In this document: positions 5,357 through 64,000 of the stretch, piece by piece | Layout of the letters: each line of letters begins with the position of its first letter | How positions within the stretch are numbered: position 1 is the stretch's first letter | NCBI GenBank assembly: GCA_025964675.1 | Contig: JAOPYI010000193.1 | Span: 53,029-117,028 of the forward strand | DNA: 64,000 nucleotides | DNA from: Sphaerisporangium sp. | GTDB lineage: Bacteria > Actinomycetota > Actinomycetes > Streptosporangiales > Streptosporangiaceae | Reading direction: 5' to 3' | Made by a program: the position numbers and the translations under genes | The notes under the pieces: model-generated | Seen by the model: only the letters and a program-made list of their open reading frames with translations | The model's database searches: none | Told to the model about the DNA's origin: nothing

Positions 5357-7996
5357 TCACAGGTCCCGCAGGACGGTGAGGGGAGGCCGCTTGGCCGTCT
5401 GTACGGCGGCCGCGCCGGCCAGCAGGAGGGCGAGGAGCCCGACAGCGGCGAGAACGCCCAGGTAGGCCCACGGGACGCTGAGTGCGCTGGGCGGTGGGTC
5501 GAAGACACCGGTCAGCACCGAGACGAGCATCTGGGAGAGCGCCCACCCGGCCAGCGTGCCGAAGATCGCCGTACCGAGCCCCACCACCATCACCTCGGTC
5601 CACACGAAGGCCCCGAGCTGGCGTGGCCGGGCGCCGAGCACGCTCGCCAGGGCGAACGTCCGGCGCCGCTCGGTGAACCCGAGGATCAGCAGCAGTCCCG
5701 TCGCGGCCACGGCCAGCGCCACGGCGAAGGTCAGCTCGATCCTCGTGAGCCCGCCGAGGTCGACGGCGGTGAGGCTGGTGCCGATGACCCGGCGGGTGGT
5801 GTCGAGGTCGGTGATCTGGGGCTGCGCGCCCAGCTGCGCCCGCAGCCGGTCCGCTACCGCCCGGGAGGCGGTCCCGTCGGTGGAGACGAGGAACGCGCCG
5901 ACGGTGTCGGAGCCGGTCTGCTGGGCGACGTAGGCCGCGTTGGCCACGAGGAAGCTGTCCCTCGGCGCCGTGGGGAACTCCCCCACGATGCCCGCGTAGT
6001 GGAAGGCCACCGTGTGGAACTGTTTCGTACGGCCGTCCTGGAGACGCAGGCGGAGCAGGTCCCCCGGGCGGAGCTGGAAGTCGTGCACGGTCTCCTGGCT
6101 GACCAGGATCGCGTCCGGCTGATGGGCGAGCCGGTCCACGATGGCCCGCGCCGTGCCACCGGTGAAGTAGGCGTCCTGGAGGCGTGTCGTGCCGAGCAGG
6201 GTGGACGGCCGCACGCCGTACAGATCCTGCAGGTCGGAGCCGACGTACGCGAACCGGTGCTGGAGCGGCTCCACCGCCTTGACGCCGGGCACGGCGGCGA
6301 TCGACCGCTCCTGCGACGGCGGCACGTACGTGCCCGGGGACTCGGTCACGGTGACGTCGGCGCCGTTGGTGAGCTGCGCGTCGGCAAGGCCCTGCTGCTC
6401 GTATGTCGAGTTGAAGGTGGCGGTGGAGATGGCGAACGCGAGGGCCAGCGCGGCGATCGCCACCGCCCGGCTGACCAGGCGCCGCTGCCGGGACAGGGTG
6501 GCGGCCACGGTGGAGGCCATCCCGGTCGCCAGCGGCTGGGCCATCCGCCTGACCAGCGGACGCCCGGGGCCGAGGAACAGCCAGATGATCCGCCAGATGA
6601 GCAGGCCCGCCCCCGCCCACAACAGCGCGGGTCCGGCGAAGGCCCAGTAGTTCACCGAGATCTGCGGGACGCCCTCGGGGACCAGGACCAGCTGGTAGCC
6701 GTTCTGGCTGGAGATCCAGAACACCGTGATCGACCCGGCGATCAGCCACACGTCCAGCCCGTAGCGCATCCACCACGGAGACTTGGTCGCGCCGATGGCG
6801 CGGCGCGCGGAGACGACGCTGAGCCGGCGCGAGTCGCGTACGGCCGGCAGGAGGATCGTGGCGATCGCGATGAGTAGCCCGGCGACGGCTGCCGTGACAC
6901 CCCAGCCCGCCGCCGTCGCCGCAGTCGCGCCGAAGCGGGCCGACCCGAAGGCGAGCCAGCCGGTGAGCGCGGCGAGCGCCAGCCCGGCGAGCGCGCCCGC
7001 GACCCCGACCACGAGTGCCTCCGCCAGGGCCAGCCTGATCAGGACCCCGGTGCTCGCCCCCCGGGCGCGCAGCAGCGCCTGCTCGGAGCGGCGCCTGCTC
7101 GCCCCCGACTCGGCGATGGACGAGGTGAGCAGCGCCGCGAGGGCGGCTCCCGGCAGTCCCAGGAACAGGAAGAGGATCTGGGCGTAGAGCGAGTCTCCCC
7201 GGGCGGCGTCGAGGGCCGCGCCGAGGTTGTTGCCGACCAGCGCCGCCCCGGAGAGCCGTGCCTCGAAGTTGCGGGCCGCCCCGGTGACCTGCTCGAAGGC
7301 AGCCGCCGGGTCGGGAGGGAGCTGGTGCTGGAACCGCACGTGGAACTGCAGGCGCGCGGCTTGGCCGCCGTACAGCTTCTTCCACTGGTCTGTGGGCATC
7401 AGGAGCAGGTTGTCCGGCGGGGCCTGCGGCTGCGCGCCGGGCGGGGCGCCCACCTTCTGGAATAGCGAGTCCGCCTCGGGAAGGTCGGCCACGCCCGCCA
7501 CCAGCACGGAGGCGTCCGGCAGCCCCGCACGGTGCAGGATGATCGTGTCACCGGGCCCGGCGTGCAGGTTCGCCGCCGTCTGCTGGGCGATGAGCACGCC
7601 CTGCGAGGTGCCGGTCAGGAACCTCAGCTCGCCGGGGAAGGCCGTGGCGTAGTCGGCGGGGATGCCGAGCACCTGCCCGGGACCCGTGGTGAGCACCTGG
7701 CCGCCCGTGCTGGACTCGAAGCCCGTCACGGTGCCGAAGTCGACCTCACGGGACATGGCGAGCCGGGGAACGCGCTGTATGGCCTGCGCCACCTGGGCCG
7801 GGTCGGCACCGTTCTGGACCTCCACCTGCCAGTCCACGGGGACCCGCTGCACCGAGCGGTCGGTCATGGTCGACTTTGCCGCGGCGAGGAAGGCGCCGAG
7901 CGAGGCAAGCAGGGCGACCGCCACGGCGACGCCTCCGGCCGAGGCCGACAGCCGCCCAGAGCGGCGGGCCAGCAGGCCGCGCAACCAGATCATCAT
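5357..7996 (-). CDS. MacB/FtsX-like ABC transporter permease with duplicated architecture
   Basis: 879 aa with two TM clusters and two large extracytoplasmic domains; ALLRARGAS and ERRRTFALASVLGA FtsX-type motifs; start overlaps the ATPase stop. Confidence 0.88.
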   Translation of the reverse strand: MMIWLRGLLARRSGRLSASAGGVAVAVALLASLGAFLAAAKSTMTDRSVQRVPVDWQVEVQNGADPAQVAQAIQRVPRLAMSREVDFGTVTGFESSTGGQVLTTGPGQVLGIPADYATAFPGELRFLTGTSQGVLIAQQTAANLHAGPGDTIILHRAGLPDASVLVAGVADLPEADSLFQKVGAPPGAQPQAPPDNLLLMPTDQWKKLYGGQAARLQFHVRFQHQLPPDPAAAFEQVTGAARNFEARLSGAALVGNNLGAALDAARGDSLYAQILFLFLGLPGAALAALLTSSIAESGASRRRSEQALLRARGASTGVLIRLALAEALVVGVAGALAGLALAALTGWLAFGSARFGATAATAAGWGVTAAVAGLLIAIATILLPAVRDSRRLSVVSARRAIGATKSPWWMRYGLDVWLIAGSITVFWISSQNGYQLVLVPEGVPQISVNYWAFAGPALLWAGAGLLIWRIIWLFLGPGRPLVRRMAQPLATGMASTVAATLSRQRRLVSRAVAIAALALAFAISTATFNSTYEQQGLADAQLTNGADVTVTESPGTYVPPSQERSIAAVPGVKAVEPLQHRFAYVGSDLQDLYGVRPSTLLGTTRLQDAYFTGGTARAIVDRLAHQPDAILVSQETVHDFQLRPGDLLRLRLQDGRTKQFHTVAFHYAGIVGEFPTAPRDSFLVANAAYVAQQTGSDTVGAFLVSTDGTASRAVADRLRAQLGAQPQITDLDTTRRVIGTSLTAVDLGGLTRIELTFAVALAVAATGLLLILGFTERRRTFALASVLGARPRQLGAFVWTEVMVVGLGTAIFGTLAGWALSQMLVSVLTGVFDPPPSALSVPWAYLGVLAAVGLLALLLAGAAAVQTAKRPPLTVLRDL

Positions 7997-60833: not shown

Positions 60834-61544
60834 ATGTCCGCAGTCGACAAGGCCTTCCACGGCCTACGGCACATGATCGCTACAGGACGTCTCGTCGCCG
60901 GGCAGCGGATTCCGCCGGAGAAGGACCTGTGCGAGGAACTCGGCGTCTCCCGGGGCTCCCTCCGCGAGGCAGTGCGAATGCTCGCGGCCCTGCGTGTCAT
61001 CGAACCACGCCACGGATCGGGTACCTACGTATCCCAACTGCGACCGGAAGACATCGTCGGCAGCTTGTCGCTCACCGTCGACCTTCTCCCACTGACCGGT
61101 CTGTTGCAGATGTACGAACTCCGTCGCGTGCTGGAAGCTCACGCCGCAGCACAAGCAGCCGCCCGTTTGACTCCCGAAACTCTGCGGGTGATTTTTGAGC
61201 ATATGGAAGCCATGGAGGCCACCGAAGACCCGTCCAACGTGTCCGCTCTCGACCACAGTTTCCACGCGGAGATCGCCCGGATCGGCGGAAACCCCACCCT
61301 GGAATCGCTGCTGGGTGTTTTCCGCGCACGCTCCCGCGCCTACCAGGTGTTCACCCTTCCCGAAGGCCCTCACATTAAGCGCGCCAGCGACGAGGACCAC
61401 CGGGCGATCGCCACCGCGATCGCCAATCGCGACCCTGTCGCCGCCGCCGCCGCGGCGTCGGCCCACGTCGCTCACACGGAGAAGTGGCTGCACGCCTTCC
61501 TGTCACATGTCACGGAAGCCGACAGGTTGAGCACTTCGGATTGA
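60834..61544 (+). CDS. FadR-subfamily GntR regulator (FCD domain)
   Basis: RIPPEKDLCEELGVSRGSLREAVRML, HGSGTYV, ELRRVLE, DHSFHAEI. Confidence 0.94.
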   Translation: MSAVDKAFHGLRHMIATGRLVAGQRIPPEKDLCEELGVSRGSLREAVRMLAALRVIEPRHGSGTYVSQLRPEDIVGSLSLTVDLLPLTGLLQMYELRRVLEAHAAAQAAARLTPETLRVIFEHMEAMEATEDPSNVSALDHSFHAEIARIGGNPTLESLLGVFRARSRAYQVFTLPEGPHIKRASDEDHRAIATAIANRDPVAAAAAASAHVAHTEKWLHAFLSHVTEADRLSTSD

Positions 61545-61572: not shown

Positions 61573-61606
61573 CTAGTGCTGTGACCGCATAGGTTCACCG
61601 GGTTGG
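61573..61606. mobile_element. Probable IS630-family terminus
   Basis: CTAGTGCTGTGACCGCATAGGTTCACCGGGTTGG matches, from recall, the ends of actinomycete IS630 elements; begins with CTAG/TA; orientation fits the 3' end of the minus-strand transposase. Confidence 0.6.
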
Positions 61607-61611
61607 ATGAT

Positions 61612-62526
61612 TTACAGGTTGTTCAAGTAAAAGTTGACGAGCCGGTCGACGGCGGCGTCGACGTACTCGGGCTCGTCGTACATCTCGTAGTGGCCGGCGC
61701 CGTCGATCACCATGAGGTCGACCGGGTTGGGTGCCAGCTTCCACAACTGCATGCCGGACTCGTAGGAGCCGGTGTTGCCTATGCGTCCGGCGAGGATGAG
61801 CTGCAGCGGCTGGGTCATGAGCTGGTCGACCAGGTGATACGCGTCGTAGCCCAGCAGCAGCGAGTCGCCGCGCGCGAGACGGCGGTTCGTGGAGTGTTCG
61901 TTCCTGCCCCGCTCGGTGCGGTAGTAGGTGATTGCCTGGGTCGTGTCGATATCGGTCAGCCCGACTGCTGTGGCTTCCTCCAAGGTGTCGGGCAGCCAGT
62001 TCACGCGGGTCAGCTCGCCGGAGCGGGTCTCTTCGATGCGCGCGTCGGCCATGGTGTCGAGTGCGGCCGCCGCGCCATCCGGCTGGAAGCTGCGGAACGA
62101 CGTGCCCATGTTGCCTGGGACGACCGTGCCGACCGCCTTGATGCGATGGTCCGTGCGGGCGGTGTGCACTGCGTAGCCTCCGCCGGCGCAGATGCCGAGG
62201 ACGCCGATGCGCTCCGGGTCGATGCCGGGGATCGTGCTGAGCGCGTCGATCGCGTAGGAGATGTCCTCACCGCGGCGGTAGGGGTCTTCGAGGTCGCGGG
62301 GCTTTCCGCCGCTCTGACCTTGATGGGCGGGGTCGAACACGAGCGCCGCGACGCCGCGGGCGGCGAGACGGGATGCGTAGTTCTCCCCGATCTGCTCCTT
62401 CACGCTGCTGCCGGGCGTGGAGAGCACCACGGCGCGCAGCGGCGCCGCATCGTCGATGCTGTCGGGCAGGTAGAGGCCGGCCGCGAGATCGATCGGTCCG
62501 CGCGGGATCGTGATGTGCTGAAGCAT
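61612..62526 (-). CDS. Alpha/beta hydrolase (DLH/FrsA-like, YcjY-type)
   Basis: PGSSVKEQ, FDPAHQGQSGGKPR.LEDP, nucleophile elbow GICAGGGY, GAGHYEMYD. Confidence 0.92.
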   Translation of the reverse strand: MLQHITIPRGPIDLAAGLYLPDSIDDAAPLRAVVLSTPGSSVKEQIGENYASRLAARGVAALVFDPAHQGQSGGKPRDLEDPYRRGEDISYAIDALSTIPGIDPERIGVLGICAGGGYAVHTARTDHRIKAVGTVVPGNMGTSFRSFQPDGAAAALDTMADARIEETRSGELTRVNWLPDTLEEATAVGLTDIDTTQAITYYRTERGRNEHSTNRRLARGDSLLLGYDAYHLVDQLMTQPLQLILAGRIGNTGSYESGMQLWKLAPNPVDLMVIDGAGHYEMYDEPEYVDAAVDRLVNFYLNNL

Positions 62527-62586
62527 CTGATGGCGCCTTTCGCGTCGGTGTTTGTTCCACAGCTGTCCAGTACGAAACACCCTCTG

Positions 62587-62616
62587 GTACAATTTGGAAC
62601 TAATTCAGAACTGTAC
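62587..62616. promoter_or_regulatory. MarR operator candidate
   Basis: AT-rich imperfect 30-bp dyad GTACAATTTGGAACTAATTCAGAACTGTAC between the divergent hydrolase and MarR genes. Confidence 0.6.
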
Positions 62617-62641
62617 CACCTGGACCGATGGAGGGGCTTGC

Positions 62642-63058
62642 GTGGCGGTTGACGGGGCGCAACTGTGGACACTGAACCAGCGTCTGCTGAGCGTCGTGAT
62701 GGATGCCTGCAGCGCTGAACTGGCCGAGCTTGGGCTGGAGACGAAGGAGTTCTTCGTGCTGGCCGAGGTGGCCGCGTCGCCGTACCCTGCCGAACTCGCG
62801 GCGGCGCTGATGATCCCTAAAGCGAGCGTGACGGTCTACGTCCGCAACCTCGTCGCAAAGGGGTTCATACGGCGCGAGATCGACGACGAGGACCTGCGGC
62901 GGCATCGGCTCATACTGACTGCCGAGGGCGAGGCGGCGCGGGACCGCGCGCTCTCAGCGCTCGCGGCGGAGTTCGACCGCAGGCTGGCGAGGATTACCCC
63001 GCAGGACCGCACCGATCTGCAGCGCATCCTTCTGGAGATGCTCAAGTCGCCAGAATGA
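62642..63058 (+). CDS. MarR-family regulator
   Basis: PAELAAALMIPKASVT..VRNLVAKGFIRRE.D.EDLRR..L.LT.EG. Confidence 0.92.
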   Translation: MAVDGAQLWTLNQRLLSVVMDACSAELAELGLETKEFFVLAEVAASPYPAELAAALMIPKASVTVYVRNLVAKGFIRREIDDEDLRRHRLILTAEGEAARDRALSALAAEFDRRLARITPQDRTDLQRILLEMLKSPE

Positions 63059-63810
63059 GGCCATGACGACGAGCGGTTGGTCTTCCCGGCGAATGCCTTG
63101 CCCGTTGGCGTCCGCCCCAGCGAATGCCCTTCTCGCTTCGGATGCGAGCGCGTTCCTTGCGTTCGGCAGCCAGGACGTCGCGGTGACGGGCGTTGGCGTT
63201 GCGCCAACGCAGGTAGGCGTGCAAGGCCCGGGTCTGCACGGTGTGGTTGGGGTGGTTGGAATTGGCGATGGTGAACTGCCTCGGCGGTTCGAAGTGCGCC
63301 TCGATCGGGTTCGCCCACGAGGCGTAGGTTGGGGTGAAGCACAACTCGACCTTGTTCTTCTTCGCTCAGCGCCGGATAGCGGTGCCCTTGTGGGCGGACA
63401 GGTTGTCCATGATCACGTAGATCGGTGCGCCGTCGGGCCGGGCGGCGCGGCTCGACTTCAGCGCGGCCAGCGTGTTCGCGGCACCTTTTCTGCGGCGGTT
63501 GACACCCCACAGGCGGTCGTCGCCGACCGAGTAGCAGCCGTGGAAGTAGCGCACTCCGTGGGTGCGGTGGTAGGTGGCGGGCACTCGGTCGGGGTGCTTC
63601 CGCTCGGCCCAGCACGAGCCTGCGGTGGGCCGGATTCCGAGCGGGCCAAACTCGTCGAAGGCGAACACCCGGTCCGGGAAGCGGTCCAGGACCTTCTCGA
63701 TCCGGTCCAGCTTCGCCTCGCGGTCAGGGTCGGGAGATTCCTTCCAGGTCTTGGTGCGCTGGAAGGTGACATCGCGGCGGGCGAGCAGGCCGCGTAACGC
63801 CTCGCGGCCG
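63042..63810 (-). pseudogene. IS630-family transposase, 5'-truncated, with an in-frame nonsense codon
   Basis: TFQRTKTWKESPDP, FAFDEFGPL, YVIMDNLSAHK, then TGA at 63366-63368 where Trp is expected (RR*AKKNKVELCFTPTYASWANPIE). The HTH N-terminus is not recognisable upstream of about 63810. Confidence 0.92.
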
Positions 63811-64000
63811 AGTGCCCAGCTACGGGTCGATGTCGCCGGTTGCCGGTTGCCGCAGCCATGACGGGGGGCCGAATCGGAAGCACAGCGCGTGCTCCGCGGC
63901 CTGGCTCCGCTCCCGCTCATCGGCCGGGATGTGGCTCGGGCTGAGCTGGGGCTATGCCAATTCGATCGCGCGTAGTGCAAGGGCCCTCCCAGCGAACGCC

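Follow-up and report, generated by a model that had tools for sequence, protein, structure and literature searches.

A very probable IS630-family transporter insertion sequence carrying a marR-hydrolase pair in actinomycetes, with a decayed copy in Sphaerisporangium

The classic IS630 of Shigella targets CTAG and duplicates the TA dinucleotide, and MIC231 of Bacillus cereus is an example of a mobile insertion cassette (MIC). The founding paper of the transporter insertion sequence (tIS) concept is reportedly that on IS1595. In ISfinder, a tIS is an insertion sequence (IS) with passenger genes located between its terminal repeats (PMC3129680, PMC9330008), while MICs consist of IS ends around a passenger gene and contain no transposase (PMC3129680). 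The DNA considered here is a stretch of 64,000 nucleotides (nt) from Sphaerisporangium sp. (GenBank assembly GCA_025964675.1, contig JAOPYI010000193.1), referred to as the window. Its positions 61573-63812 hold an element remnant composed of an IS630-type terminal repeat, a hydrolase gene, a gene for a MarR regulator and a truncated transposase gene. This segment is, with high probability, a dead copy of an IS630-family tIS with a marR-hydrolase cargo.

Like other tISs, the element displays a single transposase gene and non-transposition genes inside one pair of terminal inverted repeats; a target duplication flanks the unit and its cargo is lost only via non-transposition events. In every complete copy, and likewise in the window, marR and the hydrolase gene occupied the interval from the transposase gene to the right repeat. 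It differs from known tISs by its membership of family IS630, its actinomycete hosts, its self-regulated two-gene cargo and a relic internal right end, which records how the cargo was taken in. The anatomy of MICs was encountered in locus L049 and in the shorter derivatives L080, L079, L072 and L094, but these are deletion products of an autonomous tIS, and the window copy, having no left end, is not one of them. Composite transposons and the read-out of adjacent DNA by ISEcp1 or ISCR are comparable in that the cargo began adjoining the right end of an IS. In contrast to them, the element displays one transposase gene and a bare 34-base-pair (bp) distal repeat at a fixed position, with neither a second IS copy nor a variable boundary; two complete ISs bracketing the cargo, as in a composite transposon, were not found. 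tISs are a known kind of element, and this one appears to be new as far as the literature found. No IS630 element with passengers in actinomycetes was described in that literature, of which ISfinder and TnCentral were outside the coverage.

Read from the gene of a GntR/FCD regulator, the window presented successively the 34-mer, the hydrolase gene on the minus strand, an intergenic region, marR on the plus strand and the transposase remnant on the minus strand, as follows:

60834-61544, plus strand: gene of the GntR/FCD (FadR) regulator, directly upstream in reading order
61573-61606, unstranded: right terminal inverted repeat (IRR), the 34-mer CTAGTGCTGTGACCGCATAGGTTCACCGGGTTGG, assigned by homology to IS630 ends
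61573-61576, unstranded: outer tip CTAG of the IRR, in which TA at 61574-61575 is the presumed duplicated target
61612-62526, minus strand: hydrolase gene, 304 amino acids (aa), intact, Pfam Abhydrolase_6/DLH
62527-62641, unstranded: divergent promoter region of 115 bp between hydrolase and marR, with a conserved dyad inside
62642-63058, plus strand: marR gene, 138 aa, intact, convergent with the transposase gene, Pfam MarR_2
63059-63107, unstranded: spacer from the marR stop to the transposase remnant, containing the junction of a ~60-bp deletion at about 63100
63108-63812, minus strand: remnant of a DDE_3 transposase, residues ~143-377 of 383, delimited by tblastn with the L052 transposase and by Pfam

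From its homologies, the 34-mer can be regarded as a genuine IS630 terminal repeat and not as a chance match. The region was searched against 40 related genomes, 19 of them from other Sphaerisporangium. Five Sphaerisporangium genomes matched the transposase part (78-82% identity), and two of them contained a homologue of the 34-mer only ~30 bp from the end of that match. One of these matches, L002, is a 1258-bp contig constituting one whole IS630 element. Its terminal inverted repeats are perfect over 32 bp (CTAGTGCTGTGACCGGAAACGATCACCGGGTT) and the window 34-mer resembles them; a single frame of 364 aa ends with TGA, and the right repeat begins 10 nt past this stop. Compared with the left end of L014 (GenBank CP109465.1), the 34-mer was identical at 30 out of 30 positions in inverted orientation. 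A homologous repeat was also encountered within 5 nt of the hydrolase stop at 41 of the 84 other loci that were fetched for their relatives of the hydrolase and aligned to the window.

Since relatives of the L002 type end just after the transposase, the 1.5 kilobases (kb) separating the transposase stop from the IRR in the window are extra. Plain IS630 elements (L002 in Sphaerisporangium; L132 and L141 in Streptomyces, 1242-1243 bp) share with the cargo element the NCBIfam IS630 equivalog, the helix-turn-helix (HTH) and DDE_3 domains, 35 residues from the second D to the E, repeats of ~34 bp starting with TAGTGCT and CTAG at both junctions. The two kinds differ in the position of the right repeat, which lies ~10 nt past the transposase stop in the former and is separated from it by those 1.5 kb in the latter.

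Eight of the 84 loci aligned to the window in one unbroken stretch, which began where the window transposase is truncated, covered the transposase, marR and hydrolase genes and ended with the final base of the 34-mer. Seven of these eight were complete elements with both repeats (L052, L056, L062, L076, L082, L086, for example at L086:4191-6954, and L089); they measured 2759-2765 bp and were delimited by CTAGTGCTCTGACCGGGAAGGTTCGCCGGG... on the left and ...GGCGAACCTATGCGGTCACAGCACTAG on the right. All seven displayed CTAG at both junctions, and their flanking DNA was unrelated. Their layout, of ~2.76 kb, comprised the left repeat, the transposase gene, a decayed internal right repeat, marR, the hydrolase gene and the functional right repeat, 3-5 nt past the hydrolase stop. 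Transposase frames were open in L052 (383 aa), in L056, L082, L086 and L089 (401 aa) and in L076, while that of L062 displayed a 2-nt deletion. The L052 transposase scored 162.6 bits against NCBIfam model NF033545 transpos_IS630 (cut-off 100) and contained domains HTH_29, HTH_32 and DDE_3. Five Streptomyces species each harbored one copy of the element, 97-98% nucleotide-identical over all 2764 bp. Two shorter forms, L049 and L079, also displayed CTAG at both junctions. At L072:4381-6954 the flanks were TTAG...CTAA, so that a TA inside TTAA had been used; CTAG is thus preferred and not obligatory.

At L089 (Streptomyces sp. SM10), the flanks joined in silico aligned uninterrupted in 12 related genomes, which identifies the 2.76-kb unit as an insertion at this locus; the intergenic DNA of the empty site was too diverged for the exact TA to be read. 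No empty sites were found for the L086 and L076 copies, for which close enough relatives were lacking, and the GntR/FadR gene of the window had no close match in the 40 related genomes. L014, 99.3% identical to the window version, possessed both repeats, each with a mutated tip, as well as an internal transposase deletion; its flanks differed from those of the window and homology ended exactly at the repeat terminus. By these comparisons the whole unit, cargo included, appears to transpose.

A preliminary description made from the window alone had pointed out the 34-mer, its 5-nt distance to the hydrolase stop (TAA at 61612-61614), the divergent gene pair and a TGA within the transposase frame, all of which are present. 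It had taken the 34-mer for an IS630 end, which agrees with the repeats of L002 and L014. It had also stated that such ISs normally end near the transposase stop, as L002 does, and that they target CTAG, as found at both junctions of the complete copies. Its suggestion to look elsewhere for the unit of end, hydrolase, MarR and transposase proved fruitful, the unit recurring with both repeats in unrelated surroundings.

The window copy itself is dead, with its cargo genes intact. The transposase remnant was 87% identical to the L052 transposase across residues 143-377 (tblastn), matched Pfam DDE_3 with an E value of 1.7e-13, and retained the D, D and E residues, with 35 residues from the second D to the E. 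An in-frame TGA occupies positions 63366-63368, where relatives including L002 display TGG (Trp). Translation past this TGA would extend the frame as far as a stop at 63042-63044, within the 3' end of marR, because the ~60-bp deletion removed the true stop codon; the L002 transposase ends ...IRWGGRPLSPAA and the window frame goes on beyond IRWGGR. Homology with full-length relatives ended at 63811/63812 in every comparison, and the 5' third of the transposase gene is therefore missing. This leaves the copy without left repeat, first ~142 codons and N-terminal HTH domains. The missing 5' part was not found anywhere in the genome of the window, nor was any second copy of the element or any helper transposase of the clade.

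The complete elements point to a cargo derived from former flanking DNA and not inserted into an IS. In L052, a decayed second right repeat (ACGATCCAACGAATCTACGCGGTCACAGCACTGG) directly follows the transposase stop; in the group of L086 this internal relic is more eroded, its CTAG having become CTGG or worse in the MarR-hydrolase element. It is followed in complete elements by a spacer of about 45 nt and the marR stop. As cargo-free relatives terminate at the position homologous to this relic, a plain 1.24-kb IS once adjoined marR and the cargo corresponds to its flanking DNA. The ~60-bp deletion, which eliminated both the transposase stop and the internal repeat, was recognized by aligning the window to L052, L062, L076, L082, L086, L089 and L056, and is common to the window, L014, L019, L021 and L024.

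Two other origins were considered and rejected. The sequence GGTTGG, present at 61601-06 and 63075-80, might have passed for a 6-bp target duplication of an inserted cassette; the repetition is a coincidence, because its second copy belongs to the conserved cargo-side spacer of complete elements. Had an IS landed beside a MIC, the internal right end should be followed by a relic left end; a faint similarity to such a relic in L052 was not borne out, and in the less decayed sister elements L129, L135, L144 and L147 the internal end is adjoined immediately by the cargo, no remnant of a left end being present. As a separate observation, L080:4927-6954 (2027 bp) displayed a left-end-type sequence (…CCTTCCCGGTCAGAGCACTAG) also at its right end, while elsewhere the two element ends differ in central bases; this suggests an end exchange or conversion.

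The following history would account for these features. A second right end beyond the hydrolase gene came into use, the inner end decayed, and marR and hydrolase thereby became internal. The transposase would then cut and paste the element at its outermost repeats, as is usual for IS630/Tc1-mariner elements, so that the regulator-enzyme pair would travel as a unit. Insertion would occur at the TA within CTAG, with duplication of TA, the pair being carried along. The Sphaerisporangium copy arrived horizontally and then decayed: its left end and codons 1-142 disappeared, as did the transposase stop and the internal repeat, and the TGG-to-TGA change was gained, the cargo being kept. The preliminary description had envisaged a cassette captured inside an IS630 acting as tIS, immobilised by the TGA and the loss of the 5' end. 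Both lesions are real and are supplemented by the loss of the ~60 bp with the stop and the internal repeat. The tIS layout stands as well; insertion of the cassette into the IS does not, as flanking DNA was instead brought in through the use of a second right end.

Chance juxtaposition of two unrelated relics, namely a solo IS630 end and a second, truncated IS630 on either side of a resident hydrolase-MarR pair, is scarcely conceivable. The window copy, which lacks a left end and is the only one in its genome, would be compatible with it, as would the other IS debris nearby, including IS110-type fragments just past the window; however, dozens of genomes display this gene order with the same sequences at the junctions, homology breaks off precisely where the repeat ends, whole units with both ends lie in different flanks, and at an empty site the 2.76 kb are missing in their entirety. 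Moreover, the pair is not resident, since it is absent from the 19 other Sphaerisporangium genomes. A loose one-ended mobilisation in the style of ISEcp1, IS1247 or ISCR would take along variable neighbouring DNA via weak surrogate ends and form no fixed element. The internal right repeat behind the transposase, which indicates that the cargo began as flanking DNA, and the conservation of an internal right end alongside the distal one in L129, L144 and L147 would suit this process. It is nevertheless very unlikely, given that the distal end is a full-quality 34-bp repeat, in which 24-34 of 34 positions agree with the left end, and that it occupies a constant position, 3-5 nt past the hydrolase stop, at 41 loci. 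In addition, the internal repeat is decayed in the MarR-hydrolase element, and the outer one is therefore the working end.

The gene pair could also be conceived as an accessory module of the IS and not as adaptive cargo, with MarR for example controlling the transposase and the hydrolase acting on a signal that licenses transposition. Such a role would be consistent with the close packing of marR and the transposase gene in convergent orientation, and with purifying selection on the pair inside the element. It was judged extremely unlikely: cargo-free sisters with 78-93% identical transposase modules multiply without the pair, unrelated genes occupy the same place in sister elements, the cassette persists intact at 36 loci from which the transposase is gone, and the conserved dyad is situated between marR and the hydrolase gene and not upstream of the transposase.

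Several points nonetheless weigh against the interpretation as a tIS. Without a left end, the window copy cannot by itself demonstrate that cargo and transposase moved together at this locus, and movement as one unit is deduced from comparisons of genomes. The repeat is absent from 37 of the 84 loci, mostly in Promicromonospora, Saccharopolyspora, Lentzea and Pseudonocardia, which may be native or pre-capture copies, so the cassette is not always IS-borne; part of its spread between genera may likewise have used other vehicles. At the distal right end, the cargo abuts the inner side, and this contact is not a transposition junction. Finally, the element may already be catalogued in ISfinder or TnCentral.

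Relatives of the hydrolase with a length of exactly 304 aa, 80-99% identical, were distributed over more than 14 genera, including Streptomyces, Nonomuraea, Saccharomonospora, Saccharopolyspora, Amycolatopsis, Pseudonocardia, Nocardia, Micromonospora, Plantactinospora, Lentzea, Kitasatospora, Actinacidiphila, Promicromonospora and Umezawaea. The state of the element at the 84 loci was the following:

8 of 84 loci: right repeat and full-length transposase match
17 of 84 loci: right repeat and transposase fragments
16 of 84 loci: right repeat only
6 of 84 loci: partial right repeat
37 of 84 loci: no repeat

The marR gene was paired with the hydrolase gene at 81 of these loci. Among the loci that retained the repeat were those of Saccharomonospora piscinae, Nonomuraea sp. 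B12E4, Nocardia mexicana and two Micromonospora species. In the hydrolase tree, some repeat-less copies were nested among repeat-bearing ones, which denotes decay; others formed deep branches in Promicromonospora, Saccharopolyspora, Lentzea and Pseudonocardia. A survey of 401 Streptomyces species genomes, in which two candidates were scored per genome, detected the cassette in at least 21, a count that is a lower bound.

L049 and L088 are non-autonomous derivatives. The first (L049:5314-6954, 1640 bp, in Nocardia mexicana) is composed of a left repeat, a fusion of the first 16 transposase codons with the cargo and a right repeat, with CTAG at both ends. L072, L079, L080 and L094 are intermediate deletion forms that kept both ends. 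Such internally deleted derivatives with both ends could be moved in trans. At L088 (about 5360-6950, Micromonospora maritima), the remnant of the left repeat abuts the internal right repeat, the whole transposase gene being gone.

GyrB placed the genome of the window in Sphaerisporangium (92-95% identity to named species), which belongs to the order Streptosporangiales, while Streptomyces belongs to a different order, Kitasatosporales. The cassette was absent from 19 out of 19 other Sphaerisporangium genomes. Over 1.5-1.65 kb including the repeat, Streptomyces copies of the sub-lineage of the window were 94-96% identical to it at the DNA level, and their synonymous divergence (dS) from the window was 0.07-0.15. 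The absence from these congeneric genomes, combined with this high identity and low dS, implies horizontal transfer of the element, or at least of the cargo and the end. The unit, or the cargo with its right end attached, has thus crossed between actinomycete orders, and the copy is now stranded in the Sphaerisporangium genome.

Regarding the cargo, the hydrolase was closest to Escherichia coli YcjY (PDB 5xb6; phmmer E value of 6e-51 over residues 11-301) and also matched PA2218 (PDB 2hdw; 8e-31). Its nucleophile elbow displayed a GxCxG motif (GICAGG): GICAGGGY aligned with GICAGAGY of YcjY and GICGWGG of PA2218, the pattern GIC(A/G)xGG being common to the three, from which a cysteine nucleophile is predicted, as in dienelactone hydrolases. 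The match to a lactonase family of NCBIfam was far below threshold (45 bits versus a 400-bit cut-off). By these similarities the enzyme is a YcjY-type (dienelactone-hydrolase-like) alpha/beta hydrolase, a family itself uncharacterised; for YcjY, the sole functional comment found in the literature is an old suggestion based on the GxCxG motif (PMC3709699). The MarR domain was recognized by PF12802 (MarR_2; 4e-10) and PF01047 (3.5e-7). Compared with other copies, the median ratio of nonsynonymous to synonymous divergence (dN/dS) was about 0.23 for the hydrolase gene and about 0.17 for marR, and both cargo genes are under purifying selection.

The intergenic region contains a dyad, TGGTACAATT (62585-62594)-N14-AACTGTACCA (62609-62618). 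In an alignment of 80 loci across genera, columns were conserved to at least 90% over GGTGGTACAGTTCTG.ATTAGTTCCAAATTGTACCAG, and almost every locus had preserved the dyad. The dyad (62585-62618) is likely to represent the operator of MarR, for which it is the candidate, and the pair probably forms a MarR-repressed, ligand-induced hydrolase. The cargo of the window is presumably expressed at present, and a role of the hydrolase in detoxification is a guess.

The survey of 401 Streptomyces species genomes also gave access to the wider clade, from which 40 full-length transposase copies (L113-L152, genomes G061-G448) were taken at random rank; this is a small sample. About six of the 40 were plain ISs of 1242-1243 bp, and about 28 displayed a right repeat 450-1000 bp past the transposase stop (for example, in transposase orientation, L129:277-2480, L118:292-2237 and L115:189-1882). 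Left and right repeats of loaded sisters matched at 24-34 of 34 positions, and CTAG was present at both junctions in 27 of 30 cargo-bearing sister elements. Inner and outer right ends were both good in L129, L144 and L147. The apparent distal ends of L137 and L148 were spurious and were discarded.

The additional DNA of the loaded sisters fell into at least 20 unrelated groups, each essentially composed of one gene, usually convergent with the transposase gene. According to Pfam these genes specified three different GNAT acetyltransferases, a glyoxalase/bleomycin-resistance fold, a Peptidase_M15 (VanX-like, of the D-Ala-D-Ala dipeptidase type), an APH_6_hur kinase (APH(6)/hydroxyurea type), a SAM methyltransferase, an alpha/beta hydrolase and a GDSL hydrolase, as well as SnoaL_2, DinB/MDMPI_N and S1 domains, Imm51 and SUKH-4 immunity proteins and DUF6368; several groups had no Pfam match. 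Two copies of 1972 bp, L123 and L124, were 99.9% identical and occupied different flanks on one chromosome (G376:C1:5806550-5807741 and 2154537-2155728, to which the cargo, a 234-aa gene with no Pfam match, adds about 780 bp), which implies recent transposition of a loaded element.

We give even chances to the view that the MarR-hydrolase element is one member of a large actinomycete IS630 clade acting as a general single-gene shuttle. It looks like the member with the largest cargo in a clade where carrying a gene is the usual state.

Two further loaded elements were noticed. In Streptomyces mutabilis JCM 4400 (L107:501-2439, G042:C7), a 1939-bp IS630 carries as cargo a gene for a 190-aa protein with two S1 RNA-binding domains; a MarR-hydrolase element is located about 105 kb away on the same contig, and the S1 cargo was also found in three further species (L139, L140 and L150). 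In Streptomyces canus 299MFChir4.1 (L108:~453-2040, G044:C78), a multi-copy variant of ~1.59 kb displays, at the cargo position, an open reading frame of ~105 aa (MTHDREALQGSWNQ…) with no Pfam match, and many contig ends of G044 break inside this type of variant.

In the vicinity of the Sphaerisporangium copy, other IS debris extends beyond the transposase break (window positions 63812-64000 onward; C87:116840-120400 on its own contig). It includes two fragments of IS110-family transposases (a weak match to DEDD_Tnp_IS110 and a clear match to Transposase_20), between which the gene of an ABM-type monooxygenase is located, and the contig end is an IS graveyard.

For genome annotation, isolated 34-bp ends beside seemingly ordinary actinomycete genes can mark transposon cargo, and IS630 copies exceeding 1.25 kb should not be trimmed to their transposase. 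A mobile element explains why the hydrolase is 80-99% identical across actinomycete orders that are otherwise far more divergent. In these antibiotic-producing soil bacteria, the hydrolase-regulator pair is thereby marked as a mobile trait under selection, of the kind worth testing for activity on a natural product, a signal lactone or an ester. The interest of the element lies in the breadth of its spread, in its legible capture history and in the hint of a cargo-rich IS630 clade, the side survey suggesting that carriage of cargo is the rule in this clade and not the exception. If undescribed, this would be a cassette-exchange system built on a Tc1/mariner-type transposase; if confirmed, a Tc1/mariner-type vehicle would join the short list of single-gene movers between genomes.

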